A DNA stretch of 43,751 bases from an uncultured Mycoplasmatota bacterium (lineage in GTDB: Bacteria > Bacillota_I > Bacilli_A > RF39 > UBA660): the NCBI GenBank assembly GCA_947650775.1, contig CANSWQ010000001.1:1-43751 (forward strand). The letters run 5' to 3'. Below are positions 2,952 through 43,095 of this stretch, piece by piece. Below the pieces are notes generated by a model, which was not told the DNA's origin, searched no databases, and saw only the letters and a list, made by a program, of their open reading frames with translations. The position numbers and the translations under genes were made by a program. Every line of letters begins with the position of its first letter. Position 1 is the first letter of the stretch.

Positions 2952-3224
2952 AAAAAAATTTTTAGAAAAATTATCAAGTGGTTATTTGCTAAATAACTCC
3001 ATAGGAATTGCACCTCCTTGTGGTTCTCACAAAGTCGCCTTCATTGATTGAGTCTGTGACTAGACGAAAGTATCATTATACCTATTATTTGTTATCGCAT
3101 TATTAGTAGCAAACTAATATTTATAGTCAAGTATTAATCGCAAGCGTACTTACTAAAGTGCTTATAATAATAGGAACGTACTTGATAATTGTATTATTAA
3201 TTTCAAAGAACATGTTCCTAAATT

Positions 3225-5220: not shown

Positions 5221-6297
5221 TTAATTTATTAATTTAATAATTTCATTAAAAGTCTTTTTTTGTTTCAAAATGTTTTTGCAATCGCCTTTTTCACAATTAC
5301 TTTTACTTTTTTCTTGCACATATTTAGTAATTAGTTTATTTTTATTATACTCTTGATAAATTAAATGATTGTTTTTAAAATTATAAATCCATTCAATTTT
5401 AATATCTTCCTCATAAGATATAGTTAAAGTTCTAGCATTTAAAATATAAACCATTTCATAATCACTATTATCATTTATGCAAAAACTATCATTACAAAAG
5501 AAACTATTTTTTATTTTTTCCTCAGCTGATTCTAAATCAATATCATAATCAACATCATCATTTATAGAATTTAACTCTTCTTTAGGAATAAAATAATCAT
5601 TACTAAAATTCTTTTCATAATTTAATTTTATAATCTCTTCACTTTCATTTAAATAAACTTTTAAATATAAATTCTTAATTATATATTCTATATCTTGAAA
5701 ATTAAAATATTCATTATAACCTTTAAAATCATTAAATACAATATTGTTAGAATCAGTTTTTATAATTAAATTATCATTTCCTTTTTTATCTTTATAGAAT
5801 AACTCAATAAATTTAATATCATTTTTTACTAAAACTCCACCTAAATTAAAATATATTTTTTCATTAGTAACAACTAAAACTCCATCAGAAATTTTAATAT
5901 CTTCATTTTCATAATAAATATGATATACATTTAATGAATTATAAGTATTTACAAAATAATAAATTAAAAAACAAAAAATCAACAAAAATAAAACCCAAAT
6001 TAATAGCTTTAACGTTTTTTGTTTCCTATTTCTTTCATCATACAATTTAATAGGTATTTCTTCTATACCATCAATATTGTTTTTTGAAGTCTTTTCACCA
6101 TATAATAATTCATTTATAGAAACATTAAATATTTCACTCAATTTAATTAAACAATCTGGCTCAGGACATCTTTTACCTCGCTCCCATTTACTAACAGCAT
6201 CACGAGAAATATGTATATGCTCAGCTAAATCATATTGACTCATATTTTTTTCTTTTCTTAATTGAGCAATAAATGTCCCCATTTTATCTTGATTCAC
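5221..6297 (-). CDS. Membrane-tethered XRE-family regulator (N-terminal HTH, one TM helix, ~230-aa extracytoplasmic domain)
   Basis: The HTH is FIAQLRKEKNMSQYDLAEHIHISRDAVSKWERGKRCPEPDCLIKLSEIFNVSINELL and the TM helix is LKLLIWVLFLLIFCFLIYYFV. The likely start is the GTG at 6297, 7 nt after AGAGG; the ORF-track start is 6354. Confidence 0.8.
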   Translation of the reverse strand: MNQDKMGTFIAQLRKEKNMSQYDLAEHIHISRDAVSKWERGKRCPEPDCLIKLSEIFNVSINELLYGEKTSKNNIDGIEEIPIKLYDERNRKQKTLKLLIWVLFLLIFCFLIYYFVNTYNSLNVYHIYYENEDIKISDGVLVVTNEKIYFNLGGVLVKNDIKFIELFYKDKKGNDNLIIKTDSNNIVFNDFKGYNEYFNFQDIEYIIKNLYLKVYLNESEEIIKLNYEKNFSNDYFIPKEELNSINDDVDYDIDLESAEEKIKNSFFCNDSFCINDNSDYEMVYILNARTLTISYEEDIKIEWIYNFKNNHLIYQEYNKNKLITKYVQEKSKSNCEKGDCKNILKQKKTFNEIIKLIN

Positions 6298-6377
6298 AAT
6301 ATCGCCTCTTTCAAAACTTATCAATATTATAAGTTTTAACAAAACAATAATCAATATAATATTATAAAATATATTGA

Positions 6378-6623
6378 CTAATCATTAAAAAAGTTATCAA
6401 TATGTATATCTAAAACCAAAGATAATTTATACAAAGTTTTTAAACTTAAACCTTTTGCACCTAAATAAATTTCTACCTTTTTTATATAATCTTCAGATAC
6501 GCCTACCATATTAGCTAAATCCTTCCTAGAAAGTTTTGCTGCTTCTCTATATTTTCTAATATTTTTAGATATATTCCTCATAAAATTAACATCATATCCT
6601 TCAATTCTATAGTCTTTTTGCAT
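6378..6623 (-). CDS. Small XRE-family HTH regulator
   Basis: The 81-aa product contains NIRKYREAAKLSRKDLANMVGVSEDYIKKVE. An extended -10 (TGGTAAAAT) lies ~25 nt upstream. Confidence 0.8.
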   Translation of the reverse strand: MQKDYRIEGYDVNFMRNISKNIRKYREAAKLSRKDLANMVGVSEDYIKKVEIYLGAKGLSLKTLYKLSLVLDIHIDNFFND

Positions 6624-6691
6624 AACAAGGGTCCTTTCTACTTTTATATTTTACCATAGTATCAACGAACAAAGATTAACATATCATATTT

Positions 6692-6718
6692 AAAAAAAAT
6701 AGAGACAATCTGTCCCTA
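6692..6718 (-). terminator. Intrinsic terminator lying upstream of the 81-aa XRE gene
   Basis: The minus-strand RNA reads UAGGGACA-GAU-UGUCUCUA followed by U8. Confidence 0.7.
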
Positions 6719-6884
6719 ACAAAAAATCAAAAAAAATGTAATAATATATTGTGTGAAGAAACCAAAAGAACAAGGGTAACGATTTTTGGTCTCTTCAAAT
6801 AAGAAACATTGGTATGGAAAATACGTTTAACTTTTCACAATATATTAAAGGAAATAATGTATTAAACTACAAAAATAATCCTCA
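6692..6884 (-). ncRNA. Candidate ~190-nt non-coding transcript or terminator-containing leader
   Basis: It is bounded by an extended -10 promoter (6891-6903) and the terminator at 6692-6718. It contains a 13-bp hairpin (6755-6767 / 6784-6796, one mismatch). There is no ORF longer than 8 codons. Confidence 0.35.
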
Positions 6885-6890
6885 ATAAGA

Positions 6891-6905
6891 ATTATATCAC
6901 AAACG
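6891..6905 (-). promoter_or_regulatory. Extended -10 promoter TTTGTGATATAAT (minus strand)
   Basis: It has a perfect TGnTATAAT. It sits in the divergent region between the 6378-6623 and 6978-7433 genes. Confidence 0.5.
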
Positions 6906-6977
6906 TCCCACATATTACACCAAAAACGCATAACTTATTTTTAAAATTGTAAACTAAGTACTAATAAGGAGTTTATT

Positions 6978-7433
6978 ATGACTAAAGTTTACTCTGAAAA
7001 ATTAAGAGACATTAGAACCTATTTTGGCTATTCTCAACGAGAAGTAGCTGAAGCAATAGGCATAAAAAGAAGTTTATACACAGAATGGGAAATATACAGA
7101 GTGATTATACCTTTAAAGCATTTAATCGCACTATCTAATTTCTATAAAACTAATATTGATTACCTATTAGGTTTAACTAAAAATCAAATAACTACTAACA
7201 ATAATATAATTGATATTAATAAAATTAGTATTAGATTAAAAGAAATAAGAATGGAGCTTAAATTATCTATTAGAGATTTTTCTAAAGAATTAAATATTAG
7301 TAAAAGTACACTTAATAGGTATGAAAAAGGTAGCATTTTAGTATCAACCTCAGTATGCTATTTTATAGCTATAAAATATAATATATCTGTCGATTATATT
7401 TTATGTTTAACACAAAAAAAGTATTTAACGTAA
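6978..7433 (+). CDS. Tandem double-HTH XRE-family regulator
   Basis: Two Cro/C1-type HTH units are present (SQREVAEAIGIKRSLYTEWE and SIRDFSKELNISKSTLNRYEKG). AAGGAG lies 7 nt upstream of the ATG. Confidence 0.85.
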   Translation: MTKVYSEKLRDIRTYFGYSQREVAEAIGIKRSLYTEWEIYRVIIPLKHLIALSNFYKTNIDYLLGLTKNQITTNNNIIDINKISIRLKEIRMELKLSIRDFSKELNISKSTLNRYEKGSILVSTSVCYFIAIKYNISVDYILCLTQKKYLT

Positions 7434-7460
7434 AAAACGTAGGGAATTGCCTACGTTTTT
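7433..7460. terminator. Bidirectional intrinsic terminator between convergent genes
   Basis: AAAAACGTAGG-GAATTG-CCTACGTTTTT forms an 11-bp stem. Confidence 0.75.
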
Positions 7461-7495
7461 AATTTACAATAAATAATTCCAAAGTATTATAATTA

Positions 7496-8377
7496 TTACA
7501 CATTAAGTAATGAATAACTTACTCCACCCATAGCATCATATTGACTTCTAGTGGTAGCATTAGTAAAATTAATTACTCCTCCAAGTCCATTAGAACTTAA
7601 ATTATAAACTTTAGAATTGGCAACAGAAACATTTGATTTAGCATGTTGATAGCTTGCATAAATCATCATATTAGCATCTGAATAATAACCATTAAAGAAT
7701 AAATAATTTTTAAAGCTACTACCAGCATCAACAAGATTCATAGAAATGCCAACACCATTACTAAATTTCTTTGAATTAGCATTACTGCTATTATAGTAAT
7801 AATTCTTGTTTACACCAGCTTCTTTATAATACTGATATCCATAGAAATCATTTATAGATACATTTCCAGTATATCTTAGAGCTATAACATCAGCTGATTT
7901 TACATTTGGATTTTGTAACCAAGTATTTGAAACAAATGCAGTGAAATATTTACTGCTAGCATTCTTAGATAAAAGCATAGTTAAACGTTTATAACTAGTT
8001 TGATAACAAGCTTGAGCTTCTGAATCAGTACAATTATTATATAATTGTATCTTTGACTCCCTTTCATATTCTTCTTCAGTTAAGTATGAACTTGTTGTTT
8101 CAATAATATTTCCGTTTTCTACTAAATCACGTTCAGCATAAATTACAGATACTTCCGAATAACCATTATTATATATGAAAGAAAGGTCGTTATACTCCTT
8201 TTGACTCATGATATTAAAATCATTTTTATCTATAATTTTTTCAAATTTATTCACAATTTTATTATCAATATGAACTCCCTTCTCATTAATAAAACTACTT
8301 TCACTAGCATTAACATTTAGTGCAAAAATAGAAAACACTCCTAAAAATAAGGCAGTATTTTTTAAAAATTTTTTCAT
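7496..8377 (-). CDS. Secreted protein of unknown family, paralog of 4419-5129
   Basis: It has a signal peptide (FLGVFSIFALNVNA). It shares C-terminal blocks with the 236-aa paralog (KFSNGVGISMNL, YASYQHAKSNVSVANSKVYNL, YDAMGGV). Confidence 0.85.
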   Translation of the reverse strand: MKKFLKNTALFLGVFSIFALNVNASESSFINEKGVHIDNKIVNKFEKIIDKNDFNIMSQKEYNDLSFIYNNGYSEVSVIYAERDLVENGNIIETTSSYLTEEEYERESKIQLYNNCTDSEAQACYQTSYKRLTMLLSKNASSKYFTAFVSNTWLQNPNVKSADVIALRYTGNVSINDFYGYQYYKEAGVNKNYYYNSSNANSKKFSNGVGISMNLVDAGSSFKNYLFFNGYYSDANMMIYASYQHAKSNVSVANSKVYNLSSNGLGGVINFTNATTRSQYDAMGGVSYSLLNV

Positions 8378-8433
8378 ACATTTCCTCCTAATTTCTAATT
8401 TTTTAAATTAATTCTAGACTTTAACAATATGCA

Positions 8434-8838
8434 CTATTCACTCAAAATAGGTAAAAACCAGCTCTTTTTTGCATTTATTAATAGTGTTTTTAAAGTCTCC
8501 CCTGAATACTCATCTTTAATTCGTTGATATTCAGAAAAATTATAGCTTTCTCCAAAGTGATTTATAAATAAATTATTTTCACTAAAATAATCAAACCAAT
8601 TTAACAAAATATCGTCAAATTCTTCGTCATCAGGTATTTCTTTGCTTGCAATAATACTATACATATCATTCAAAGTATATTTAGTATCAAAATATTTTAA
8701 TGATTTGGCTTCCACTATATTTGGCTTTTCATCATGAAATATTTTTAGTTCTTTATTAGCACTTAATTTCAATATTACTAAACCTAAAGAAAAAACCAAA
8801 AAAGATATAACAACTAAACATATTTTATTTTTCCTCAT
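8434..8838 (-). CDS. Small membrane-anchored protein, unknown function
   Basis: AAGGAGG lies 6 nt before the ATG at 8838, and the ORF-track start at 8856 is a GTG. It has an N-terminal TM helix, ICLVVISFLVFSLGLVIL. Confidence 0.7.
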   Translation of the reverse strand: MRKNKICLVVISFLVFSLGLVILKLSANKELKIFHDEKPNIVEAKSLKYFDTKYTLNDMYSIIASKEIPDDEEFDDILLNWFDYFSENNLFINHFGESYNFSEYQRIKDEYSGETLKTLLINAKKSWFLPILSE

Positions 8839-9085
8839 CAATATCCTCCTTATCACATAATAACGCTCAAGTATTTATGATATTTCCAATTATTAATAAT
8901 GTGTTGCCAGAAAAAACTAAAGCGCATATATTTCTTTTTATTAAATACGAAATTTCTTTATAAATATTTCTAACTTAGCATTATAAAAGACAATTTACAA
9001 TTACGATTTTCCAATAATATAATATCTAGTTCTTGAAAGAAATATAGCAAACATTAATAATGCAAAATATTTTTTATAATTACTA

Positions 9086-9520
9086 TTATCCATTAATCAA
9101 ATCTATTATTTTTTCTATATTATCACTCAATAAGAAATAATCCAATTGCTTTAGTGTTAAGACAAGTCCTGGGTTGAACTCTAATTTTGCAATTTCATCA
9201 TTTTCTTTTCCATACATAAACATTGTGTATTCAGAACCAGTATCAGCAATAGTTCCTTTTACAATTTCAGAATCAATTATTAATTCTAAGTATTGATTAA
9301 TTAGAGCTATATCTTCTATTTCTTTAATAATTTTAGTTTTTGGACACATTCTTTCTGCATATATACTATTACATATTACAATTTTATTTGTCATTGAAAG
9401 AACCTCTTTTATTTCAACAATTGAATAATACTTATATTCATTTTTTTTAGTAATATTAAAATTTGAAACTATAATGAATATAAATAATATCAAAATAATA
9501 ATATATGAAAGCTTTTTCAA
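9086..9520 (-). CDS. Small membrane-anchored protein, unknown function, translationally coupled to the protease gene
   Basis: The start is 2 nt after the protease stop. It has an N-terminal TM helix, LSYIIILILFIFIIV. Confidence 0.7.
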   Translation of the reverse strand: MKKLSYIIILILFIFIIVSNFNITKKNEYKYYSIVEIKEVLSMTNKIVICNSIYAERMCPKTKIIKEIEDIALINQYLELIIDSEIVKGTIADTGSEYTMFMYGKENDEIAKLEFNPGLVLTLKQLDYFLLSDNIEKIIDLING

Positions 9521-9521
9521 C

Positions 9522-10772
9522 TTAATATCTAAATATTCCTAAATCAGCTTTTATATTTTGCATTTTAGTATAATTCATATAATGAGTTTCGCTAGTGCTT
9601 CCTTCAACTATTCCTACAATTGTTGCAGATTTTTCTAGCAAGAACACAGGACCACCACTATCTCCACCATCAGCTTTAACATTTGTCATTGTCTGGTCTA
9701 CTAATTGAACTGGTCTCATTGTAATACTATCTGTAACATACATAGTTTGACTTAACACAGTAATTTTTCCTTGTGTCCCACCAGTTTTCCAACCACTTTT
9801 ACCAATTAATGTTCCAACTGTAGCCTTATTATAATCAGGAACTCTTAAACTAGTTGCTGGCCATACAGAATATTGCAAATCATTAGTTACAGTTCCATCT
9901 GTCTCTATAAATGAAGCATCTGTTCTTTGTCCCATTCCATATACTTGCTTTTTTAAAATCCCATATCCTAAATAGTCTTCACCTATTTTAATTTTTTGAG
10001 TACAATGTCCAGCTGTAACAAATCCTTTTTTACCATTTAATGTAGCTCTAAAGCCAACTGAGCAGCCCTGAGTACTTCCTTGCCACATTTTTTCTCCAGC
10101 ATTAAGAGCAATATAAGTTCTTTGTCCATCTAAAAATTCAATATATTCAGAATCAATAATTTTTTCTTTAAACTTTTCTTGTTCTTCAATTGAATTATTT
10201 TCCAATTCTACAATAACTTTATTTTTAAGTACATCTACATAGTTACTAACTATACTAATATCTGTATCACTATTTTTTGAAAAATACTCGATAATATAAT
10301 CATCAACTTTCTTTAATTCATTAAATGAATTGTCTACATACTCAATTAGTACATTATCATTAGCACTTTTAATAGCATTTAATTCATTAAACTTACTATC
10401 TGTGCTTCTTGAGATTTTGTTCTTTACAACTTGAATAACAAGTTCTTGATTATCATTAATATAATTTCCTCCATAATAGTTAGGATATAGTCCATTATTT
10501 TTTTCGTCCAGTAAATTATCAATTTCATTAGCAATTTTTGTTGCTTTAATGTTAGAATTAACAACATCTTGATAATTCTCTCCATATTTTTCAAATAAAG
10601 ACTGTTTTAATGAATCTTGAAACTCTTTCGTATAAATTTCTGATTCAGCATCATAAAATGATATTTTACTATTATTTTCAACTGGTGACAAATAAAATGT
10701 ACTGCTTAAAATTGGTATAGTAACTGCAGTTACTAATAACATAGCAGAAACTTTTTTAATACTTTTTTTCAT
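9522..10772 (-). CDS. Secreted chymotrypsin-fold serine protease (S1, streptogrisin/alpha-lytic-like) with a long N-terminal pro-region
   Basis: It has a signal peptide. The catalytic motifs are VTAGHC (His), TDASFIE (Asp) and GDSGGPVF (Ser). Confidence 0.88.
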   Translation of the reverse strand: MKKSIKKVSAMLLVTAVTIPILSSTFYLSPVENNSKISFYDAESEIYTKEFQDSLKQSLFEKYGENYQDVVNSNIKATKIANEIDNLLDEKNNGLYPNYYGGNYINDNQELVIQVVKNKISRSTDSKFNELNAIKSANDNVLIEYVDNSFNELKKVDDYIIEYFSKNSDTDISIVSNYVDVLKNKVIVELENNSIEEQEKFKEKIIDSEYIEFLDGQRTYIALNAGEKMWQGSTQGCSVGFRATLNGKKGFVTAGHCTQKIKIGEDYLGYGILKKQVYGMGQRTDASFIETDGTVTNDLQYSVWPATSLRVPDYNKATVGTLIGKSGWKTGGTQGKITVLSQTMYVTDSITMRPVQLVDQTMTNVKADGGDSGGPVFLLEKSATIVGIVEGSTSETHYMNYTKMQNIKADLGIFRY

Positions 10773-10905
10773 AACTCTTTCATCATTCCTTTCCTATATT
10801 ATTAAAAAAGTATATTTTTTATTTCAACAATATCACCTACTTTCAAAAATCAGCTAATTATAACTAACTTTCTAAGTACATAATAACACAATACAAAATA
10901 TATTT

Positions 10906-10926
10906 TTAGGGACTTACTGTCCCTAA
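10906..10926. promoter_or_regulatory. Palindrome TTAGGGAC-TTACT-GTCCCTAA upstream of the protease operon, without a U-tract
   Basis: It is a perfect 8-bp inverted repeat ~135 bp upstream of the 10772 start. It has the same core as the terminator stems at 5177-5197 and 6700-6718. Confidence 0.4.
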
Positions 10927-11128
10927 GAATAATTTAAACAAAATAAACACAATTATTAATAAAATCAATATTAATTAATTATACTATTTATATTTACCAA
11001 CTATCCAAATAAAGCAAGTTAAATCCTGTTTTTTTATATTTTTTTCTATATCTATTCATTAAATATAAATAAACATTTACAAATAAATAAAAATCCATTA
11101 GAATAGTATAAAGAAAGGAGATATGCTA

Positions 11129-11434
11129 ATGACTAAAGAACAAAAGGAAGTACATGACTTTGGAGCAGAACTTGGTACTCTAGTAACAAATAATAAAGGA
11201 TATGCAACAAGCGCAAGCTATTCAGAAGATTTACTTAGATATCAAACAAATAAAAATTATGACAAATGCTATCAACTAATAACTGAGTTAGCACTACATT
11301 ACAATTCTTCTATACCTACATCAATATTAACATTAACATCAGAAACGACAGAACACGAGAAAGTCCTAGTTTTATATGCTTATATGATGGGCTTCCATAA
11401 TGCTTCTCTTGAAGCAAAAAAAAAGAAAAAATAA
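11129..11434 (+). CDS. Hypothetical protein with a lysine-rich C-terminus
   Basis: AAAGGAG lies 8 nt before the second ATG. A terminator follows. It is one of only two plus-strand genes inside the ICE. Confidence 0.6.
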   Translation: MTKEQKEVHDFGAELGTLVTNNKGYATSASYSEDLLRYQTNKNYDKCYQLITELALHYNSSIPTSILTLTSETTEHEKVLVLYAYMMGFHNASLEAKKKKK

Positions 11435-11515
11435 TATATATAAAATTTATATTTAATCTTAGCATATTGAAAAAAATAAATTATATTTTTAAATTTAATC
11501 TTAATACATTGCAAC

Positions 11516-11538
11516 AAAGATGGGATTCCATCTTTTTT
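11516..11538. terminator. Intrinsic terminator shared by convergent genes
   Basis: AAGATGG-GATT-CCATCTT is followed by T-rich sequence on the plus strand and preceded by an A-run. Confidence 0.7.
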
Positions 11539-11550
11539 ATTTATAAAAAA

Positions 11551-13026
11551 TTAATAGTTTACTATACCATACCCAGCAATTACATCACTATCTAAATTAT
11601 ATGAATTGTTTTTACAAACATCATTAGAATTACCTTCTATGGTGTAAACTTTATTATCCTCAATTCTTTCAACTATACCAACATGATTTAATCTACCATC
11701 TAGTTCCCAATCGAAAAAAATTATATCTCCAACATTAGGAACATAATCTTTATCTTTCCATTGCCCTAGTGCTTTAAACCAATTAGCGCCTACACCAACT
11801 ACTGAAAATTTAAGTATGGTATTATTTTCAATATACCCTACTTCATTAGCTACCCACGAAACAAATATAGCGCACCATTCAACTCTTGAATCGAATCCAT
11901 ACCATGACCAATATTTTTCTCCGCCAACATTGCCAATCTCCTGTAAAGCAACTTGCACCATACTGTTAGTCCCAATTTTTACTCCATGAATAGAATTAAG
12001 CCATAGTTCGTCTAAATCTTCATTAGATAACTCTTCTATTATTTTACACTGCTCTACATTAAAGTTATACTGATTTATCATTTCTTCTAAACTCTTACTA
12101 TTAATATAAATATAAAGAATACTTTTATTAGAAGTCACTTCTATATTATCTTCGGTAACATCGGTTACTATTTCATTTTTAACTTCTGATTCAATATTAT
12201 GGACATCCCAAAAAATAGTTTTTATAATAGACGCTTTATCTTCATTTAAAGTAATTACATCCATATCTAAAACATAAACTTTAGCAATATATAGTTTTAA
12301 TATATCTTTCCATTCTGTACGATTAGATACAATTTCAAACTCATCATAAACATTAGTACTCTGTATTTCTTTAATTTTAAAAATAACCTCATTATTAATA
12401 TCTTTAACTACTGAACTTATAGTAAAACCACTATTTTCAACATCTTCTCCATTAAAAAAAACACCATATATTGAAGAACATAAAGATGCTAAAAGACACA
12501 TAATTATTATAATTATAATAGCCACATACCCAAAAGCAAATAAAGCTAAAACTAATAGTTTTAAAGAATTAATAATAGTTTTTAAAATTTTTATAGATAT
12601 CTTAAAAGTAGCTTTTAAACTATAATATGTTCTCTTAGTAGCTTCTTTTGCTAATTTACGGGCATTTTTAATTGCTTTTATATTTTCTTCTGCAATCTTT
12701 TTATCTTTCTGTAATTTATTATAAACTGTTCTAAATTTTTTATTGGTATTCTTTATTTTTTTTTCAGTTAGTAAAGATTTTATTTTATCCTTAGTCTTTA
12801 TAACATTACTTTTTGCCTCTTTTACTATACGGTTTCCTAATTTGGTAAATTCTAAAGTTTTAAAAGGTAAAGATTTATTAAATGAAGAAAGCCTATTAAC
12901 AGCATAAGCATTTTCGTTTACTTCATTACTATTATAGGCATTTTCACTTTTATTTTTAACATTAATCACACTATCTTTTGTTTTAATTGTTTTATTAGCA
13001 ACATTTCTTAGTTTTATATTAGACAT
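11551..13026 (-). CDS. T4SS-associated cell-wall hydrolase (TM helix plus C-terminal CHAP/NlpC-P60 domain)
   Basis: The C-terminus carries EWCAIFVSWVANEVGY (catalytic Cys) and NHVGIVERIED (His). It has a central TM helix and sits directly after VirB4. Confidence 0.85.
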   Translation of the reverse strand: MSNIKLRNVANKTIKTKDSVINVKNKSENAYNSNEVNENAYAVNRLSSFNKSLPFKTLEFTKLGNRIVKEAKSNVIKTKDKIKSLLTEKKIKNTNKKFRTVYNKLQKDKKIAEENIKAIKNARKLAKEATKRTYYSLKATFKISIKILKTIINSLKLLVLALFAFGYVAIIIIIIMCLLASLCSSIYGVFFNGEDVENSGFTISSVVKDINNEVIFKIKEIQSTNVYDEFEIVSNRTEWKDILKLYIAKVYVLDMDVITLNEDKASIIKTIFWDVHNIESEVKNEIVTDVTEDNIEVTSNKSILYIYINSKSLEEMINQYNFNVEQCKIIEELSNEDLDELWLNSIHGVKIGTNSMVQVALQEIGNVGGEKYWSWYGFDSRVEWCAIFVSWVANEVGYIENNTILKFSVVGVGANWFKALGQWKDKDYVPNVGDIIFFDWELDGRLNHVGIVERIEDNKVYTIEGNSNDVCKNNSYNLDSDVIAGYGIVNY

Positions 13027-28422: not shown

Positions 28423-31400
28423 TTATCTTTCATAAGCCTTATTGTACTTTTGGCTTTCTACTTCAACATTATCATTAAAGTCAACGACTTCATTATCTTT
28501 CTCATTCATATTAAGTAAGATATTTACATCATCTAATCGTTTGGACTTTTCTTTTAATTCTTGCTCTTGTTTAAATGGCTTTTTACATTCTTCTTTAGCA
28601 TTTTTAAATTGTACTTTGACATTTTCTAGTTCAATTTCTTCTCTTTTTAAAGCAAAAGGCATCATATCTATTTCATTATTGATACGAGTAATATTACCTA
28701 AATTATCTTTACCAAGAATTACAGAATGTGTTAGTTCGTTTTTCAAATATATTTGAAAACCATCATAGTGGTAGTCAAGTTCCATAGTAAAACCTTTATA
28801 ACTTCCTATCTCTTGTTTTTCTGACTTTCTAATATTCTTACAAAGTTCGAGTATTTTGTCTCCTGCTTCTTTCTTATCAGTATATGTGATGCCTTTTATA
28901 ATCATACTTTGAAACTTTTCATTACTATTTGGAGTATTTTTTTCAGCAAGCTCTATATCTTTTTTATAGCCTTCTATTCGTGTTTCTAACCTTTTTATTT
29001 CATTAGGATAATACTTTACCACCTTATTTTCCATCTCATAAATTTGGCTCAAGTGATTCTGTTTTAAGAGTTTTAATTTTGCAACTTGGGTATCCAACTC
29101 TGTCTTTTCCATTATAAGTGGATTACCAGCAGCGAGTGCTTTAATCTGTGCATAATTAAGTGCAGACTCATCTATATCTTCAGCAACTCTAATTGGAGTT
29201 TTAGAAGTCATTATTTGTGAAATAAATCGTTGTTTATTCTCTACTAATTGATAAAGATATGCGTCAAAAGTCCCCTCTGTTACATAATTATAGATATATA
29301 CTTCTTTGTTTTTGTTACCTTGTCTTAATATTCTACCACTTCTTTGCGTAAGGTCAGCAGGTCGCCATGGGCAGTCTAAGTTATGAATTGATATTAATTT
29401 GTCTTGACAGTTTGTTCCTGCGCCCATCTTGCTTGTGCTGCCGAGCAAGATTCTTTTTATACCATATCTTACTTGTGAAAATAAAGTGTTCTTCTGTTTA
29501 TCTGTCTTAGCATTATGAATAAACTCGACTTCATCTTCTGGAACACTTAACTCTTGCAACTTTCTTTTTAACTCATCATATACATTAAATTTATCTTCAT
29601 TTGGTGTAGATAAATCACAAAAAACAAGTTGTGTAAGGTGTTCTTCTTTATGTTCTTGCCATATTCTATAAATATTATTAGCACATAACGACACTTTACT
29701 TTCTGGAGCATCTGGCAACATATCATTTATAAGTCTTTGGTCGAGTGCAAGTTTTCTTCCATCATTTGTTATTTTTAACATATTATCAGTTGATGAGTCA
29801 ACCTGTTTATTTCTAACCCTATCTGCTCTATTAGAAAGTTCTTTTACCATATCCTTTTGTATTTCAGTAGGCTTTGCTACTATTGTTTCATAGTGTGCTT
29901 CTGGTACTGGTAGGTTAAGCATATCAGCAGTTTGAATATCTGCCACTTCTTTAAACATAGCCATCAATTCTGGTAAGTTATAAAATTTAGCAAATCTAGT
30001 CTTGGCTCTGTAACCTGTTCCCTCTGGTGCAAGTTCGATAGCTGTTACTGTTTCACCAAAAGTAGAAGCCCACGAATCGAAGTGTTGCAAATTTCTTTTC
30101 TCCAATTCTGCATATTGTAAATACCTTTGCATAGTATAAAGCTCCGCCATACTATTTGATACTGGAGTTCCAGTTGCAAATACAACTCCTCTACCGCCAG
30201 TTAATTCATCCAAGTATCTACACTTCATAAACAAGTCACTAGATTTTTGTGCTTCTGTTTGTGCTATACCACCAACATTACGCATTTTCGTATAAAGGAA
30301 AAGATTTTTATAGTAGTGTGCTTCATCCACGAATATTTTATCTACTCCAAGTTCTTCAAAGGTAACAATATCATCTTTTCGACTTGCATCATTTAACTTT
30401 GCTAATTTTAACTCAAGACCTTTTTTTAACTTTACTAATTGTTTAATAGTAAAGTTTTCTCCATTGTGCGCTTTTAAGTCTTGTACTCCCATAGTTATAT
30501 CATCAATTTGGTTTTGTAATATTATTCTTTGTCTTTCAACCGATATTGGTATCTTCTCAAATTGACTATGAGAAATAATAACTGCATCATAATCTCCTGT
30601 GCTAATTCTTGAACAGAACTTTTTACGATTCGCCGTTTCAAAGTCTTTCTCAGTAGTAACTAAGATGTTAGCACATGGATAAAGTTGTAAAAATTCCGAA
30701 CTAAATTGCCCTACTATGTTATTCGGTACTACGAACATTGACTTATTACATAGTCCTAGTCGCTTTGATTCCATCGCGGCAGCGACCATTTCAAAAGTCT
30801 TGCCTGCTCCAACTTCGTGTGCTAATAGAGTGTTTGTATTTCCATAAAGGATTCTTGCTATGGCATTAACTTGGTGTGGTCGCAAAGTTATTTCTGGATT
30901 CATACCATGAAAACTAATATGAGACCCATTATATTCACGAGGTCGATTAGTATTAAATTTTTCATTATAGATTTTACTTAGTCTATCTCTACGCTCAATA
31001 TCACTCCATACCCATTCACAAAAAGCAGATTTTATTTGTTCTTGTTTGGCTTGAGCAATAGCAGTTTCTTTTTTATTTAACACTGGTACTTTTTTACCAT
31101 TTTCATCAACATGATAATCATATATCCTAACATCTTTTAAATTAAGCGCTTCTTCTATAATTTTATAAGCATTGATTCTACCTGTTCCATAAGTAGAATA
31201 TGCTTTTACATTTTCCTTATCACAATTCTTCCCCTCTACATTCCATTGGGCTGTGCTCTCCATAAAATGCACTTGTATTTTATCTTTAATATGTGGGGCA
31301 GGAGATAAAAGATAATCAATAAAATTATTTACAACATCTACTGGAAGCCAAGTAGCACCAAGTCTTACTGCTATTTCTTGTGGTTCTAAATCTTTTGGCA

Positions 31401-34400
31401 TCACATCTTCAAGACATTTTACATTGATATCGAACCTAGAATCATATTTTGCAAACTCTTTGGCTATCTTTAACTTCTCACGAATATTACCAGATAAATA
31501 CTCATCAGCTGTTACCCATATATTAGTGTTGCCATATTCTGGAACATTAAATATCACACCCTCTAAATCAGATAACATTCTCTCCATGTCAAGACCACAA
31601 AGCCTTTGCATAAATTCTAAATCAACTCTGGCTTTCTCAGAAATAGAAACAATTAAAGCTTCATTTGCAGTATCTACATTAGTCACTTTCCTATGTGGAA
31701 GTATTGTTCTTTTAGTAAATATATCTGCTTTTTTAAGAAGTTCTTTGTTCTCATCAAGTATTTCTAAAGAACATAGTAAATAAAAACTATTATCATTAGA
31801 AAAAGCAGAGGTATTCGCTCTGCCATTGATAAGTCCATATTTTTTAGTAAAACTATCATATAGTTTATTAAGTTTTACTTGTTCTTGTTTTATATCTTCT
31901 TCTGGGAAGTCCTCTGTTTGTAGTTCTAATAAATTTCTTACACACTCTCTTATTTCTATTAAACCCCTTATACGATTTTCAGTAATAAATGGCAATTCTT
32001 GTGGATACATTCTACTATTCTCACGATAATAGATTTTGTCATCTACTATGGTATATGAGAAGTTTTTAACATTATAATCAGCAGGAATGGACAAATCTTC
32101 TTCATCTTCCCCTATATTATCTATCTCATATTCTTTTATTTCAGCGTGTATATTAGATATAGCATTGTTGAGTTGTTCTTCTAGTGTTTTATCTTCTCTT
32201 GCTTCACAAGTAGAATCCATCCCAAATCTCGTAGATTCCATTTTCATATTACCACATATCATATGGGGGTTATCAATAAAATACCTGTTCATTTTGATAC
32301 CATTTTCATCAGTATCTAAATAAACCCAATCTGGCTCTATATCAGTTATTGAATCTCGCTTTTGCAAGAAGATAATATCAGAAGTAACTTTCGTTCCTGC
32401 ATTGTCTTTAAAAGTATTATTTGGAAGTCTTATTGCTCCTAGTAAATCAGCTCTTTGTGCTATATACTTTCTAACACTTTGGTTTTCTTTATCTAAAGTA
32501 CCTTTACTTGTTATAAAAGCAACAATTCCACCTGGTCTTACTTTGTCGAGAGTTTTTGCAAAGAAATAGTCGTGAATAAGAAAATTATGCTTATCGTATC
32601 TCTTATCTAATAATTTAAGACTATCAAATGGAACATTACCTATTGCCCCATCAAAAAAAGAATCTGGAAGTTCTGTATCTTCAAAGCCCTGTACTGCAAT
32701 AGAACTCGTTTGATATAATTGTCTAGCAATTCTACCGCTTATCGAATCTACTTCAATACCATACAACTTACAGTCTTTTAAAGTATCTGGTATCATACCT
32801 AAAAAGTTCCCAACCCCACAACTAGGCTCAAGTATATTTCCATCTTTCATGCCCATACTTTCCAATGCTTTATACATTGTACGAATAACTACTGGAGGCG
32901 TATAAAAAGAGGTTCTAGTAGAATCTCTTGCAGCTTTATACTCTTCTTCATCAAGAATGTTTTTTAATTGTACAAATTCATTAGCCCATGAATTATTATT
33001 TTCTTCAAATACTTGTGATAAACCACCCCAACCAATATACTGTGATAGTATTTTCTGTTCTCCTGGAGTAGCAAAACGATTTTCTTCTTCGCATTGTTTT
33101 AAGACTTTAATTGCTTCTATATTACGATTAAACTTTTCTCTATCACTGCCAACACCCAACAAGTCATCAGTAATATGGAAGTTATTTCTATCTTGATTTT
33201 TGATTTCTGGGTGTATATCAAAAGTAGTAACTCGTGTTCTTCGTTTTTTAGCAATATTAGGTATAATTGTTTCCTTTATCTGTTCTGCTTCTTTTTCAGC
33301 CAGTAAAGATAATACTTTGCTTAATTCTTCATTACGAAAAATAGGAAAACCTACACCATTTTGGAAAGCAACATCTTTAAGTGATACGACATCATTATTG
33401 ATACTATCAATATTGTACTCTCTATTGCCAATAGTTATATTTTTACCTATTAAATTTTTTTCAAGCTTTTCTTGTTCTATGACTCTTGTTTCATATTTCT
33501 TACGATACTCTTTTAATTTTTCTATATCGTGATTATTAACTTTATCTACTGTGCCTTTTTCGTTATATTCAAAAACTTGATTGAACAAGAAGTCATATAC
33601 TTCTATACCCTCCAAAATTAGGTCATTTTCATAATCATAGGTAACAATATTTTCATTAGAATTAAATGATACCTTAATGTCATCTAATTCATAAATAGAT
33701 AGAATATGCCCCACTAAATCTACTTCATCATCATACTCGCCGTACTCTTTTTGCTCTTCTTTTTCAAAAAAATAATCATTAAAATCATTACCATAATTTT
33801 TTACTCCATACTCAAGATAACCATTATAATTTATACTATCTTTGGTAATTATTACAAGATTATTTTTAGCTAAGTCGTTTTCAAAAACATAATTGCTAAA
33901 ATCTCTAACTGTAACATAGGCTTTTTCAACATCAGTTTTATTTAATGCTTCTTGAAACTTAATAAGGTCTGCTTGTGTAAATACTTCTTGTGTTATCCAA
34001 TATAAATCATCTCCCACAGACGAATAGTCTTTAAAACGCATATTGTTAGGTATTTGCTTTTCAAATTCTATATCGATAAATTCTTTAATTTCATTCTTAG
34101 TAGTAACTTCTACTTTTAAATGGTCGTTGCAAGGATTCTCTTTTACTTTTCTATTAAATTCCTCAAAAGAAAATTCTTGATTAAATAAAGGGTAATTATA
34201 ATCATATAATCTAACAATATTATTATCTATTTCAAGAATCTCAAACTTATCTGCTCCAATATAGACTTTATCTCCTATTTTGTATCTATAATCAAAAATA
34301 ACATCTTCTGTTTTTTCGGTTACAATACAAGGTGCTTGGTCACTATCATCGTAAAATCCTAGTTGTAAATTAGTTCTCTCGTTACTATCTCCTCTGCTAT

Positions 34401-35541
34401 CGCTTTCAAGTTGTTCATTAAGCCTACCCACTTCATCTGGTCTTTGACTTTCAATTCTTCTGTTATATTCTCTTTCTTCGCCATTTCCTCTATCATTTGT
34501 TCCACTCTCGTTTCGGCTATCTCTTGAACTTTCAGCAAGTGTTCTGTTAGAACATCTTCCATCAACATTATTTGATAATCTGTGAATTTGTTCTTTTTCA
34601 AATAATTCAGTCTCATTATTCCATATTTTCCTATTGCTGTCTGCCTTTTCATTTTCACCGCTATATTCGGTAACATTACCCCATTCATTTTTTTGTAAGT
34701 TATCATTTTTACTTCTCCTTTCATCTTCTTTAATATTATAAATGTCTTTGGTATTATTATCAAATGTGCAAACAGATTCTATTTCACCAATTCGTACATC
34801 TTCTAAGATAGCGTTTATTTCATGAAGAATATTTTTAGAAATATCATTAATAGCAGAACCAAGTACTGTTATAGTAGATAAATCTTGAAATAAATTGATA
34901 TTTTTAAAGTTATCAGATATAAAATAAGGTTTCAAATTATCTTTAAAGCGCTTCAATATAATTAAAGTAACACTATTAGTCAATAAACTTTTTAATTCTT
35001 CATCTATAATATCACGAGAAATAAATTGAAGTCTAGTATTTTCTGTATTTTTATACAGATTTGATAAATAATAATGATATTTATCTTCTAATGAAGCTTT
35101 TACTACATATTTTATATTATCAAAAATATTTTCACTAACTGAAAAAGTATACTTTTCAGCTAAAGTTGCAATAACTTGACTTTCAAATGCCTGTGGTATT
35201 TTCCAAACATCAAACTTAACACTATTATGTCTTCTTTTTCCTTGAGTATCAGATATATCAAAAACATATTTTAAATAAGAATAGCCATTGCTTTCTCTTA
35301 AAAGTGCAATTCCTTTAGAGTTAGCCTTAACCCTCCTGTTTAGTTTATTGTTCCAAGTGTCATAATCTGCACATAAAGTTGCACTTGGTTTCTGAGCATA
35401 AATCATTAACTGGTCAATGAAAGCATACTTATAATTCATAGCAGCACATTCCAAAAAAGCTTCAAAATTCAAAGTATTCTCTGTAATACTAATAGCTGCC
35501 TCTTTAAAGATGTCGGTGGCATTCTTCACAGTAGTAGCCAT
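28423..35541 (-). CDS. Polyvalent conjugative-element protein: ArdC-like N-domain, disordered linker, repeated small domains, N6-adenine DNA methyltransferase, SNF2/DEAD-like helicase, C-terminal coiled region
   Basis: The N-domain reads LMIYAQKPSATLCADYDTWNNKLNRRVKANSKGIALL. MTase motif I is LEPSCGVGNF (~32806-32830) and motif IV is GNVPF (~32625-32640). The helicase has AHEVGAGKTF (~30791-30820), DEAH (~30320-30331) and QRSGRILRQGN. Confidence 0.92.
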   Translation of the reverse strand: MATTVKNATDIFKEAAISITENTLNFEAFLECAAMNYKYAFIDQLMIYAQKPSATLCADYDTWNNKLNRRVKANSKGIALLRESNGYSYLKYVFDISDTQGKRRHNSVKFDVWKIPQAFESQVIATLAEKYTFSVSENIFDNIKYVVKASLEDKYHYYLSNLYKNTENTRLQFISRDIIDEELKSLLTNSVTLIILKRFKDNLKPYFISDNFKNINLFQDLSTITVLGSAINDISKNILHEINAILEDVRIGEIESVCTFDNNTKDIYNIKEDERRSKNDNLQKNEWGNVTEYSGENEKADSNRKIWNNETELFEKEQIHRLSNNVDGRCSNRTLAESSRDSRNESGTNDRGNGEEREYNRRIESQRPDEVGRLNEQLESDSRGDSNERTNLQLGFYDDSDQAPCIVTEKTEDVIFDYRYKIGDKVYIGADKFEILEIDNNIVRLYDYNYPLFNQEFSFEEFNRKVKENPCNDHLKVEVTTKNEIKEFIDIEFEKQIPNNMRFKDYSSVGDDLYWITQEVFTQADLIKFQEALNKTDVEKAYVTVRDFSNYVFENDLAKNNLVIITKDSINYNGYLEYGVKNYGNDFNDYFFEKEEQKEYGEYDDEVDLVGHILSIYELDDIKVSFNSNENIVTYDYENDLILEGIEVYDFLFNQVFEYNEKGTVDKVNNHDIEKLKEYRKKYETRVIEQEKLEKNLIGKNITIGNREYNIDSINNDVVSLKDVAFQNGVGFPIFRNEELSKVLSLLAEKEAEQIKETIIPNIAKKRRTRVTTFDIHPEIKNQDRNNFHITDDLLGVGSDREKFNRNIEAIKVLKQCEEENRFATPGEQKILSQYIGWGGLSQVFEENNNSWANEFVQLKNILDEEEYKAARDSTRTSFYTPPVVIRTMYKALESMGMKDGNILEPSCGVGNFLGMIPDTLKDCKLYGIEVDSISGRIARQLYQTSSIAVQGFEDTELPDSFFDGAIGNVPFDSLKLLDKRYDKHNFLIHDYFFAKTLDKVRPGGIVAFITSKGTLDKENQSVRKYIAQRADLLGAIRLPNNTFKDNAGTKVTSDIIFLQKRDSITDIEPDWVYLDTDENGIKMNRYFIDNPHMICGNMKMESTRFGMDSTCEAREDKTLEEQLNNAISNIHAEIKEYEIDNIGEDEEDLSIPADYNVKNFSYTIVDDKIYYRENSRMYPQELPFITENRIRGLIEIRECVRNLLELQTEDFPEEDIKQEQVKLNKLYDSFTKKYGLINGRANTSAFSNDNSFYLLCSLEILDENKELLKKADIFTKRTILPHRKVTNVDTANEALIVSISEKARVDLEFMQRLCGLDMERMLSDLEGVIFNVPEYGNTNIWVTADEYLSGNIREKLKIAKEFAKYDSRFDINVKCLEDVMPKDLEPQEIAVRLGATWLPVDVVNNFIDYLLSPAPHIKDKIQVHFMESTAQWNVEGKNCDKENVKAYSTYGTGRINAYKIIEEALNLKDVRIYDYHVDENGKKVPVLNKKETAIAQAKQEQIKSAFCEWVWSDIERRDRLSKIYNEKFNTNRPREYNGSHISFHGMNPEITLRPHQVNAIARILYGNTNTLLAHEVGAGKTFEMVAAAMESKRLGLCNKSMFVVPNNIVGQFSSEFLQLYPCANILVTTEKDFETANRKKFCSRISTGDYDAVIISHSQFEKIPISVERQRIILQNQIDDITMGVQDLKAHNGENFTIKQLVKLKKGLELKLAKLNDASRKDDIVTFEELGVDKIFVDEAHYYKNLFLYTKMRNVGGIAQTEAQKSSDLFMKCRYLDELTGGRGVVFATGTPVSNSMAELYTMQRYLQYAELEKRNLQHFDSWASTFGETVTAIELAPEGTGYRAKTRFAKFYNLPELMAMFKEVADIQTADMLNLPVPEAHYETIVAKPTEIQKDMVKELSNRADRVRNKQVDSSTDNMLKITNDGRKLALDQRLINDMLPDAPESKVSLCANNIYRIWQEHKEEHLTQLVFCDLSTPNEDKFNVYDELKRKLQELSVPEDEVEFIHNAKTDKQKNTLFSQVRYGIKRILLGSTSKMGAGTNCQDKLISIHNLDCPWRPADLTQRSGRILRQGNKNKEVYIYNYVTEGTFDAYLYQLVENKQRFISQIMTSKTPIRVAEDIDESALNYAQIKALAAGNPLIMEKTELDTQVAKLKLLKQNHLSQIYEMENKVVKYYPNEIKRLETRIEGYKKDIELAEKNTPNSNEKFQSMIIKGITYTDKKEAGDKILELCKNIRKSEKQEIGSYKGFTMELDYHYDGFQIYLKNELTHSVILGKDNLGNITRINNEIDMMPFALKREEIELENVKVQFKNAKEECKKPFKQEQELKEKSKRLDDVNILLNMNEKDNEVVDFNDNVEVESQKYNKAYER
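34359..34706 (-). CDS. tnpV: TnpV-family protein gene nested in an alternative frame of the polyvalent ORF
   Basis: AAAGGAG lies 8 nt upstream of the ATG at 34706. The 115-aa product MITYKKMNGVMLPN...IGKYGIMRLNYLKKN...ITEELKVKDQMKWVGLMNN...EIVTRELIYN matches the TnpV pattern end to end, from memory. Confidence 0.7.
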   Translation of the reverse strand: MITYKKMNGVMLPNIAVKMKRQTAIGKYGIMRLNYLKKNKFTDYQIMLMEDVLTEHLLKVQEIAETRVEQMIEEMAKKENITEELKVKDQMKWVGLMNNLKAIAEEIVTRELIYN

Positions 35542-43021: not shown

Positions 43022-43095
43022 TGGCAGGGGATGAGAGAATCGAACTCCCATCTGGCGTTTTGGAGACGCTCATTTTTCCATTAAACTAATCCCCT
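43022..43095 (-). tRNA. trnW: tRNA-Trp (anticodon CCA), complete, with CCA encoded
   Basis: The reverse complement is AGGGGATTAGTTTAATGGAAAAATGAGCGTCTCCAAAACGCCAGATGGGAGTTCGATTCTCTCATCCCCTGCCA. The acceptor stem is AGGGGAT/ATCCCCT, the D stem GTTT/AAAT and the anticodon loop CUCCAAA. The T arm is GGGAG-TTCGATT-CTCTC, with G73. Confidence 0.92.

Follow-up and report, generated by a model that had tools for sequence, protein, structure and literature searches.

The question raised by this locus is whether one run of bases, read on the same strand in two frames, serves as two genes at once. The stretch of DNA that was analysed, called the window below, comprises 43,751 nucleotides from an uncultured Mycoplasmatota bacterium (GenBank assembly GCA_947650775.1, contig CANSWQ010000001.1) and is, judging by its gene content, an integrative conjugative element (ICE). 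Its minus strand carries an open reading frame (ORF) for a polyvalent protein of 2372 amino acids (28423..35541), the host gene, and a sequence-only reading of the window had noticed inside it a second ORF matching the TnpV family, which is known from transposons and integrative mobilizable elements (IMEs), the two being taken for a real overlapping pair. The results presented here make it very probable that a single run of 348 bases on one strand codes for two proteins, namely the giant polyvalent protein and an independently initiated TnpV of 115 amino acids.

Both open frames were found as that reading had described them. The longer nested ORF occupies 34359-34763 of the minus strand and amounts to 134 amino acids when counted from a TTG; counted from the ATG at 34706 it gives the tnpV coding sequence (34359..34706, minus strand) of 115 amino acids and a stop. 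This coding sequence lies entirely within the host ORF, on the same strand and in a different frame, which is the +1 frame of the host (35541-34706 = 835; 835 mod 3 = 1) and agrees with the offset of one nucleotide noticed earlier. Membership of the TnpV family over the full length, first recognised by eye, was borne out by profile search: the nested product matched Pfam TnpV (PF14198) with E=2.7e-35 and 121.2 bits against a cut-off of 27, its residues 3-113 aligning with model positions 1-111 of 111, and the nested homologs described below reach 77-159 bits, likewise at full length. With its own ATG and Shine-Dalgarno (SD) sequence the product would also fit the size of the family, since called TnpV proteins are nearly all 115-130 amino acids long. 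The AlphaFold2 (AF2) model is confident, with a predicted local distance difference test score (pLDDT) of 87.9, and consists of an N-terminal beta hairpin followed by helices. Neither the nested product nor the N-terminal part of the host was matched by any NCBIfam model. A public collection of 15 billion proteins contains the exact host protein and no exact copy of the nested one, and from this absence it is concluded that the nested tnpV was left unannotated in the source records.

The openness of the two frames is far beyond chance, as had been supposed. The longest stop-free run in the host +1 frame measures 139 codons and lies at tnpV, the runner-up being 52 codons, and in the host +2 frame no run exceeds 38 codons. 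When the TnpV protein was kept fixed and its synonymous codons were redrawn according to local usage, a mean of 10.9 host-frame stops was obtained and 0 of 20,000 resampled sequences were stop-free, against the observed value of 0; when the linker protein was fixed instead, the mean was 4.4 nested-frame stops and the probability of none, P(0), was 0.0017. Shuffling of codon order gave P(0)=0.0015 and 5e-5. The means by which the host frame is kept open can be read from the codons themselves. There are 43 TnpV codon pairs in which the second codon starts with AA, AG or GA, and in 0/43 of them does the first codon end in T (22 end in G, 15 in A and 6 in C), while T-ending codons occur elsewhere in tnpV in 13 of 72 cases; every G- or C-ending example that the sequence-only reading had listed for this avoidance is present. 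The overlap at 34359-34706 has a G+C content of 34.5%, compared with 30.5% in the rest of the host ORF and about 27% in the window, and among relatives the stand-alone tnpV copies of AT-rich DNA have 18-26% G+C as opposed to the GC-enriched nested copies of AT-rich hosts. This local enrichment is the compositional footprint of stop avoidance, and such a footprint could serve for finding further dual-coding regions.

The conservation of the arrangement was examined in a genome scan, using one genome per species and seeded with the host N-terminal domain (alignment A2, since alignment A1 was too divergent to act as seed). The scan yielded at least 569 matching stretches, from which the best 80 loci were retained, many of them from metagenome-assembled genomes (MAGs); 4 of the 80 end at a contig edge before the region, which leaves 76 informative loci. 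A full-length TnpV was found in 75 of the 76, located 750-900 nt past the start of the N-domain and always in the host +1 frame. The genomic G+C content of these loci spans 24-61%, and the carriers include Bacilli, Erysipelotrichales, Clostridia, Faecalibacterium, Roseburia, Dehalobacter and Cohnella, so that conservation is Firmicute-wide. A tblastn search of plasmids with the nested product returned both ordinary annotated "TnpV protein" genes and matches beneath coding sequences annotated as "helicase-related" or "SNF2-related" in C. perfringens, C. botulinum and Virgibacillus. In all four plasmid regions fetched, representing three lineages, TnpV (31-37% identity) occupies the host +1 frame with both frames open, and these inner ORFs are TnpV by Pfam as well (77-86 bits). 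Among 79 TnpV genes on metagenome contigs seeded with TnpV, 59 were nested, 19 stand-alone and 1 on a contig too short to judge; the upstream N-domain was present in 55/55 testable nested cases and absent in 12/13 stand-alone ones. The nested arrangement is dominant, not universal. The nested frame thus stays open in relatives, which had been proposed as a check.

The host frame was found to be a single uninterrupted ORF across TnpV in 74 of the 75 TnpV-bearing loci; the splitting of the host ORF into separate genes is therefore not the general state among relatives. The exception is L071 of Cohnella rhizosphaerae (5389-12371), in which the host gene is divided among three frames: the head ORF in frame 0 ends at 6906, tnpV in frame 2 occupies 6849-7178 and the remainder, in frame 2, starts from 7179, the host-equivalent frame being open across TnpV within the limits 6833-7303. 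This locus represents either a split, unfused state or the result of (two) indels. In L038 and L056 the host gene is split soon after the linker, and in L106 (8-5892) the head ORF stops inside a full-length TnpV by a single stop in the host-equivalent frame; downstream of that tnpV lie response regulator, histidine kinase and ABC-transporter genes, a cargo which replaces the remaining polyvalent gene. Finally, TnpV is absent from L035 (Oscillospiraceae MAG; 6001-7100), where the N-domain and the methylase region are connected without interruption by a P/A-rich linker of roughly 100 amino acids. The existence of this TnpV-free linker implies that the tether role is independent of tnpV DNA.

The split loci L071, L038, L056 and L106 are what would be expected if the 2372-amino-acid ORF stood for separately made head and enzymatic proteins, with the host frame untranslated over tnpV. 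An untranslated frame should hold stops in the way that stand-alone tnpV genes do, and these show 1-22 stops in the host-equivalent frame (11-18 in the stand-alone controls). Over nested tnpV none was found, neither in the 74 N-domain-seeded and plasmid nested genes nor in the 59 metagenome nested genes, which makes this explanation quite unlikely. For 63 unique nested homologs, each evaluated with the codon usage of its own locus, 2.8-14.6 host-frame stops were expected and 0 were seen, with P(0)<=0.048 per locus. Zero stops against such an expectation per gene is the direct footprint of selection for read-through.

Which of the two frames is constrained at the level of amino acids can be deduced from the pattern of variation. 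When 72 unique nested genes were aligned by codon, the first, second and third positions of the TnpV codons had nucleotide entropies of 1.07, 0.79 and 1.37, respectively, a pattern that is normal for coding sequence read in the TnpV frame and "anti-coding" for the host frame. In 86 close pairs, which are not independent so that the ratios alone are to be read, changes that are TnpV-synonymous and host-non-synonymous had an observed/expected ratio of 2.9, those non-synonymous in both frames a ratio of 0.48, and host-synonymous, TnpV-non-synonymous changes were depleted to 0.35; suppressed synonymous variation, which the sequence-only reading had suggested looking for, is accordingly found in the host frame. 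From the substitution ratios and the entropies together it follows that the host-frame amino acids are unprotected and that openness alone is kept. Purifying selection acts on the TnpV frame, the host frame being held stop-free with its sequence as a passive read-out. The earlier view that selection maintains both frames consequently stands as regards a real overlapping pair, and requires the amendment that in the host frame selection concerns openness and not amino acids.

The properties of the host-frame linker are in line with this. It comprises amino acids 262-394 (34360..34758, minus strand), is predicted to be disordered and overlaps tnpV; the low-complexity character ascribed to its residues 279-394 was confirmed, these having an excess of N, E, R and S and few I, V, F or Y, and the AF2 model of host residues 262-420, which contain the overlap, has a pLDDT of about 30 and no secondary structure. 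The apparent "conserved motifs" of the linker are translations of TnpV motifs and of the SD, with no protein-level constraint of their own. In the window sequence and in alignment A1, from which the correspondences were taken, the linker element E-R-S corresponds to the SD GAAAGGAG, R-(E/K)-(V/I)-W to G-K-Y-G of TnpV, SQRPDEVG to K-D-Q-M-K-W-V, SRGDS to A-E-E-I-V and NLQL to I-Y-N-stop. As a separate observation, four host homologs (P0014, P0018, P0038 and P0044) give a second, downstream BLASTP match covering the query linker (start 148-281, end 486-501), which may be a repeated linker or a second nested copy.

The same data bear on two further explanations. The nested ORF might be a silent relic, a tnpV engulfed when neighbouring genes fused, no longer expressed and awaiting decay; the reading of the host frame through tnpV, the want of a call for the nested gene in the source record and the existence of the L035 host without TnpV would all suit such an origin. 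A relic, on the other hand, should gain stops and lose TnpV constraint, while full-length matches of 77-159 bits persist over about 70% host divergence, the codon-position and substitution patterns fit the TnpV frame, and an SD and ATG are retained in 74/75 nested ORFs. The relic is thus very improbable and appears already largely refuted by these patterns. The other explanation, that an element acting as DNA or RNA (a recombination site, an oriT or a structured RNA) merely mimics an ORF, might be suggested by the reported site-specific insertion of IMEs in snf2 of related ICEs. It is contradicted by the concentration of variation at TnpV third codon positions, by full-length matches to curated protein hidden Markov models and by the occurrence of the same family as ordinary stand-alone genes; moreover, an Rfam scan was negative in the region and the 11-bp IME repeat does not occur there. 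These features refute it as the sole explanation, and we regard it as exceedingly improbable.

The translation signals of tnpV are those of an ordinary bacterial gene. The SD GAAAGGAG is located at 34715..34722 (minus strand); the AAAGGAG noted earlier is at 34721-34715 and is followed, as claimed, by an 8-nt spacer and the ATG at 34706. An SD of the GAAAGGAG type, 6-10 nt before the ATG, precedes 74 of the 75 nested ORFs over the whole range of 24-61% G+C, and in many AT-rich relatives a TnpV-frame stop stands directly before the ATG or a few codons off.

SD-like sequences can also stimulate frameshifting, as in prfB and dnaX, and some or all of the TnpV might arise fused to the head through programmed +1 frameshifting stimulated by the internal SD-like sequence. 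Two called proteins, P0276 and P0282, are in-frame fusions of an ArdC-N-like head to TnpV, the product expected from a +1 frameshift close to the nested ATG. These fusions are rare, being two among the 150 top matches, and resemble indel artefacts or mutants. The upstream TnpV-frame stops, the conservation of the ATG at position one of the TnpV model and the classical SD-ATG spacing of 6-10 nt speak against a frameshift, and no conserved slippery motif was seen by eye, no systematic search having been made. Since SD and ATG are conserved and TnpV-frame stops lie upstream, independent initiation is favoured over a frameshift fusion, to which we assign little likelihood.

A promoter may also be embedded in the host ORF. 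The promoter-like element TTGATA-17-TATAAT (34735..34763, minus strand; TTGATA at 34763-34758 and TATAAT at 34740-34735) agrees with the consensus at 11 of 12 positions, and is the best in the scanned region; 28 nt separate the end of its -10 hexamer from the nested ATG. Among 28 unique relatives with AT-rich DNA the hexamers are conserved (entropy 0.54 and 0.48 bits), the 17-nt spacer is fixed in length and variable in sequence (1.29 bits), and the distance from the -10 hexamer to the ATG varies. For the final codon of the last hexamer the amino acid varies (D, N or H), the codon being always xAT. These features are suggestive of a putative private promoter for tnpV in the AT-rich clade that includes the window.

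The following course of events is proposed. The outer gene would give rise to an ICE polyvalent protein built of an ArdC-N-like head, a tether of about 130 amino acids and methylase-like and SNF2 helicase modules, while the inner gene, in +1 and wholly within the tether-coding stretch, would give the folded TnpV-family protein of 115 amino acids. Translation of TnpV would start independently, from its own SD and ATG on the long transcript, and in the AT-rich clade probably also from a short transcript made from the embedded promoter. Selection would keep the TnpV amino acids and remove codon pairs that yield TAA, TAG or TGA in the outer frame; the outer frame over tnpV would then be a passenger, providing a hydrophilic disordered spacer between head and enzymatic modules. 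The joint openness, the conservation among Firmicutes, the constraint on one frame in particular, the preserved SD and ATG and the parallel divergence of TnpV and host gene are established; that both proteins are actually produced and that the promoter is active is inferred.

Several points weigh against this proposal. The 80-locus samples consist of the hits closest to their query and are not random draws, and the host gene can work without TnpV, as in L035. The AF2 fold of TnpV found no significant match in the PDB (best E=4) or BFVD (best E=0.9). The promoter-like element is missing in GC-rich relatives; such matches are common in AT-rich DNA (23 found versus 14 expected in the scanned region), and the hexamers coincide with host codons (T-F-D and Y-(D/N/H)), a possible confounder of their conservation. 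Ribosomes translating the host frame could, in addition, occlude the internal SD.

With respect to the history of the overlap, TnpV distances and N-domain distances were found to be closely correlated (Mantel r=0.86, 0/999 permutations), both reaching about 70% divergence, and this tight co-divergence implies that the overlap is old and was inherited with the host gene. In a neighbour-joining (NJ) tree of 142 unique TnpVs, weak as such a tree is for a short protein with sampling biased to nested genes, the stand-alone genes fall into about 10 scattered clades and the parsimony root is nested. In GC-rich DNA the host-frame stops of stand-alone tnpV genes can number only 1-2, from which it is inferred that fusion would have been easiest in a GC-rich lineage. 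No second TnpV and no recombinase was found next to the nested tnpV in any examined locus.

The stand-alone copies keep a characteristic company. The closest called TnpV relatives (54-57% identity) are stand-alone and lie beside serine recombinases and Mob_Pre relaxases, and in general the neighbours of stand-alone tnpV are Mob_Pre or MobA-type relaxases and serine recombinases. As a domain of large proteins TnpV was met in sporadic chimeric calls only. One called protein of 207 amino acids (P0244) contains a partial TnpV unit (to about residue 90) followed by a complete one.

TnpV is treated in the literature as a protein of transposons and IMEs, and a part in IME transfer was lately proposed (PMC12084326). 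The protein was formerly likened to Xis (PMC3158075), and TnpX works without a directionality factor (PMC5704250). A role as Xis or recombination directionality factor was considered here and rejected, there being no Xis-like fold (no PDB match at E<=0.001) and the tyrosine integrase lying far from tnpV. A role in DNA transfer or establishment is suggested with modest confidence from gene company, because relaxases adjoin the stand-alone copies and because here the company consists of a single-stranded DNA-binding protein (SSB), the ArdC-N-like head, a relaxase and a type IV secretion system (T4SS). IMEs that bear tnpV and a serine recombinase insert site-specifically in snf2 of Tn5252-type ICEs, for a reason which the authors consider unclear (PMC9815147, PMC5704250); according to an IME review, Tn6104 sits in traG, not snf2. 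The idea that the nested tnpV serves as attachment site for serine-recombinase IMEs in snf2, with the tnpV brought by the IME as its substitute, a lead taken from PMC9815147 and PMC3158075, was not upheld, as the 11-bp IME repeat is unenriched and absent from the region, and it is kept as a weak lead only.

It is tempting to speculate that the TnpV family as a whole belongs mainly, and perhaps originally, to the nested site in polyvalent genes, the Tn4451-like and IME copies being repeated escapes and TnpV itself a transfer or establishment factor co-produced with the head. The nested majority of the sampled TnpVs (59/79), the nested NJ root and the co-divergence with the host gene are in favour of this possibility, which is held tentatively and as rather doubtful. 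If it were true, the overlap would persist by hard-wiring co-inheritance and co-expression through the private SD and, in AT-rich hosts, the private promoter, and the linker motifs ERS, R-E-V-W, SQRPDEVG, SRGDS and NLQL would be translational shadows without protein-level meaning.

The host protein and its element complete the description of the locus. The head (amino acids 1-261; 34759..35541, minus strand) is modelled by AF2 with pLDDT mostly >90, and its best Foldseek match in the PDB, which is also the sole significant one, is ArdC of R388 (6i89; E=9.9e-4, probability 1.0, TM score only 0.25-0.34). The ArdC-like nature assigned to this domain earlier is thus tentative, resting on a structural match and not on Pfam, where ArdcN gave weak matches in 2 of 8 relatives (E>=0.019); a PDB profile search with the N-domain alignment returned no match. 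A methylase-like segment (amino acids 959-1034; 32440..32667, minus strand) resembles Eco57I weakly and below the Pfam cut-off (E=2e-4, 21.9 bits versus 25.3), and the motifs EPSCGVGNF and GNVPF were seen in the methylase-like translation. The SNF2/ResIII helicase core (amino acids 1551-2075; 29317..30891, minus strand) is above the Pfam cut-offs for SNF2-rel_dom (6.2e-9), ResIII (3.6e-8) and Helicase_C (9.9e-7), so that several enzyme modules share one polypeptide; MutS-I was found in relatives of the host protein.

An SSB gene lies directly upstream of the polyvalent gene, and the window further contains genes for a tyrosine integrase, a relaxase, a type IV coupling protein (T4SS-DNA_transf), a VirB4-like ATPase, a CHAP hydrolase, a Toprim protein, ParB, a sortase and a SpaA/thioester adhesin. 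A DNA-level search of plasmids with the region gave no close relative of the element. A tRNA gene (43025-43095, minus strand) lies at the end of the element opposite the tyrosine integrase gene (329-1876) and may mark the ICE attachment site, and near the integrase end an Rfam pemK RNA motif was detected at 2999-3079 (minus strand) with 59 bits against a gathering score of 34.8.

Overlaps of this kind can be compared with a few known systems. The Rz and Rz1 spanins of phage lambda, both of them functional, work together in a single machine, and each frame specifies a sequence of its own. Like Rz1, the nested tnpV is a complete same-strand gene embedded in a +1 frame with its own start; the outer frame here, however, is a stop-free disordered tether within a 2372-amino-acid multidomain protein, the inner gene is also widespread as a stand-alone gene, and the overlap (348 nt) is about twice as long. 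The comS gene of Bacillus subtilis, of 46 codons, overlaps a catalytic domain of srfAB and is confined to close relatives of B. subtilis. Like tnpV it is small, lies out of frame within a giant multidomain Firmicute gene and has translation signals of its own, whereas tnpV has 115 codons, lies over a linker and is conserved across Bacilli and Clostridia (24-61% G+C). The TnpV proteins of Tn4451/Tn4453 and the PF14198 proteins of IMEs belong to the same family, but their genes are free-standing with 1-22 host-equivalent stops, and in place of TnpX the present ICE has a tyrosine integrase.

Polyvalent proteins of conjugative elements have been surveyed by Iyer et al. 2017 (PMC5512222), and the host protein resembles their type in a putative ArdC-N-type N-terminal head, SNF2 and methylase-like modules, T4SS context and Firmicute hosts. 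TnpV, reading frames and linkers are unmentioned in that survey, and the stretch treated there as a spacer houses a second gene. In viral overprinting one frame is likewise ordered and constrained and the other disordered and of odd composition (PMC8227390, PMC6195259, bioRxiv 10.1101/229690). The usual model of overprinting has the new protein arising within an old gene, while here the evidence points the other way: the folded family would have existed first, and part of the large outer protein, the disordered member of the pair, would have been superimposed on it. Long same-strand nested bacterial genes under selection are very rare, with few established cases (PMC9927249). No prior description of a nested TnpV was found in open-access papers and bioRxiv preprints mentioning TnpV or PF14198, and the sequence-only reading, too, had known of none.

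The arrangement has evident consequences for annotation. At least 11,278 TnpV clusters exist among called proteins alone, and a large share of the family is hidden from standard gene callers. Where contigs are fragmentary, it is sometimes TnpV that is called and the host gene that is lost: on L092, L093 and L094 (the contigs of P0121 and P0125), GenBank/ENA "TnpV protein" entries are 95-97% identical to nested copies, and the host frame is open throughout although the host gene is uncalled or partly called. Gene callers choose inconsistently between the two overlapping genes. To read the conserved "linker" of these polyvalent anti-defence proteins as a motif or domain would be an error if, as it appears, it is the shadow of another gene and its signals.

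For the biology of these elements, the tnpV overlap, 348 nt long and present in hundreds of species-level Firmicute genomes, would offer a clean model for the maintenance of dual coding, in which mutations that abolish one product and leave the other unchanged could be used as genetic handles on TnpV function. It also ties TnpV to a leading-region-type module of conjugative elements, that of the SSB and the ArdC-N-like head.

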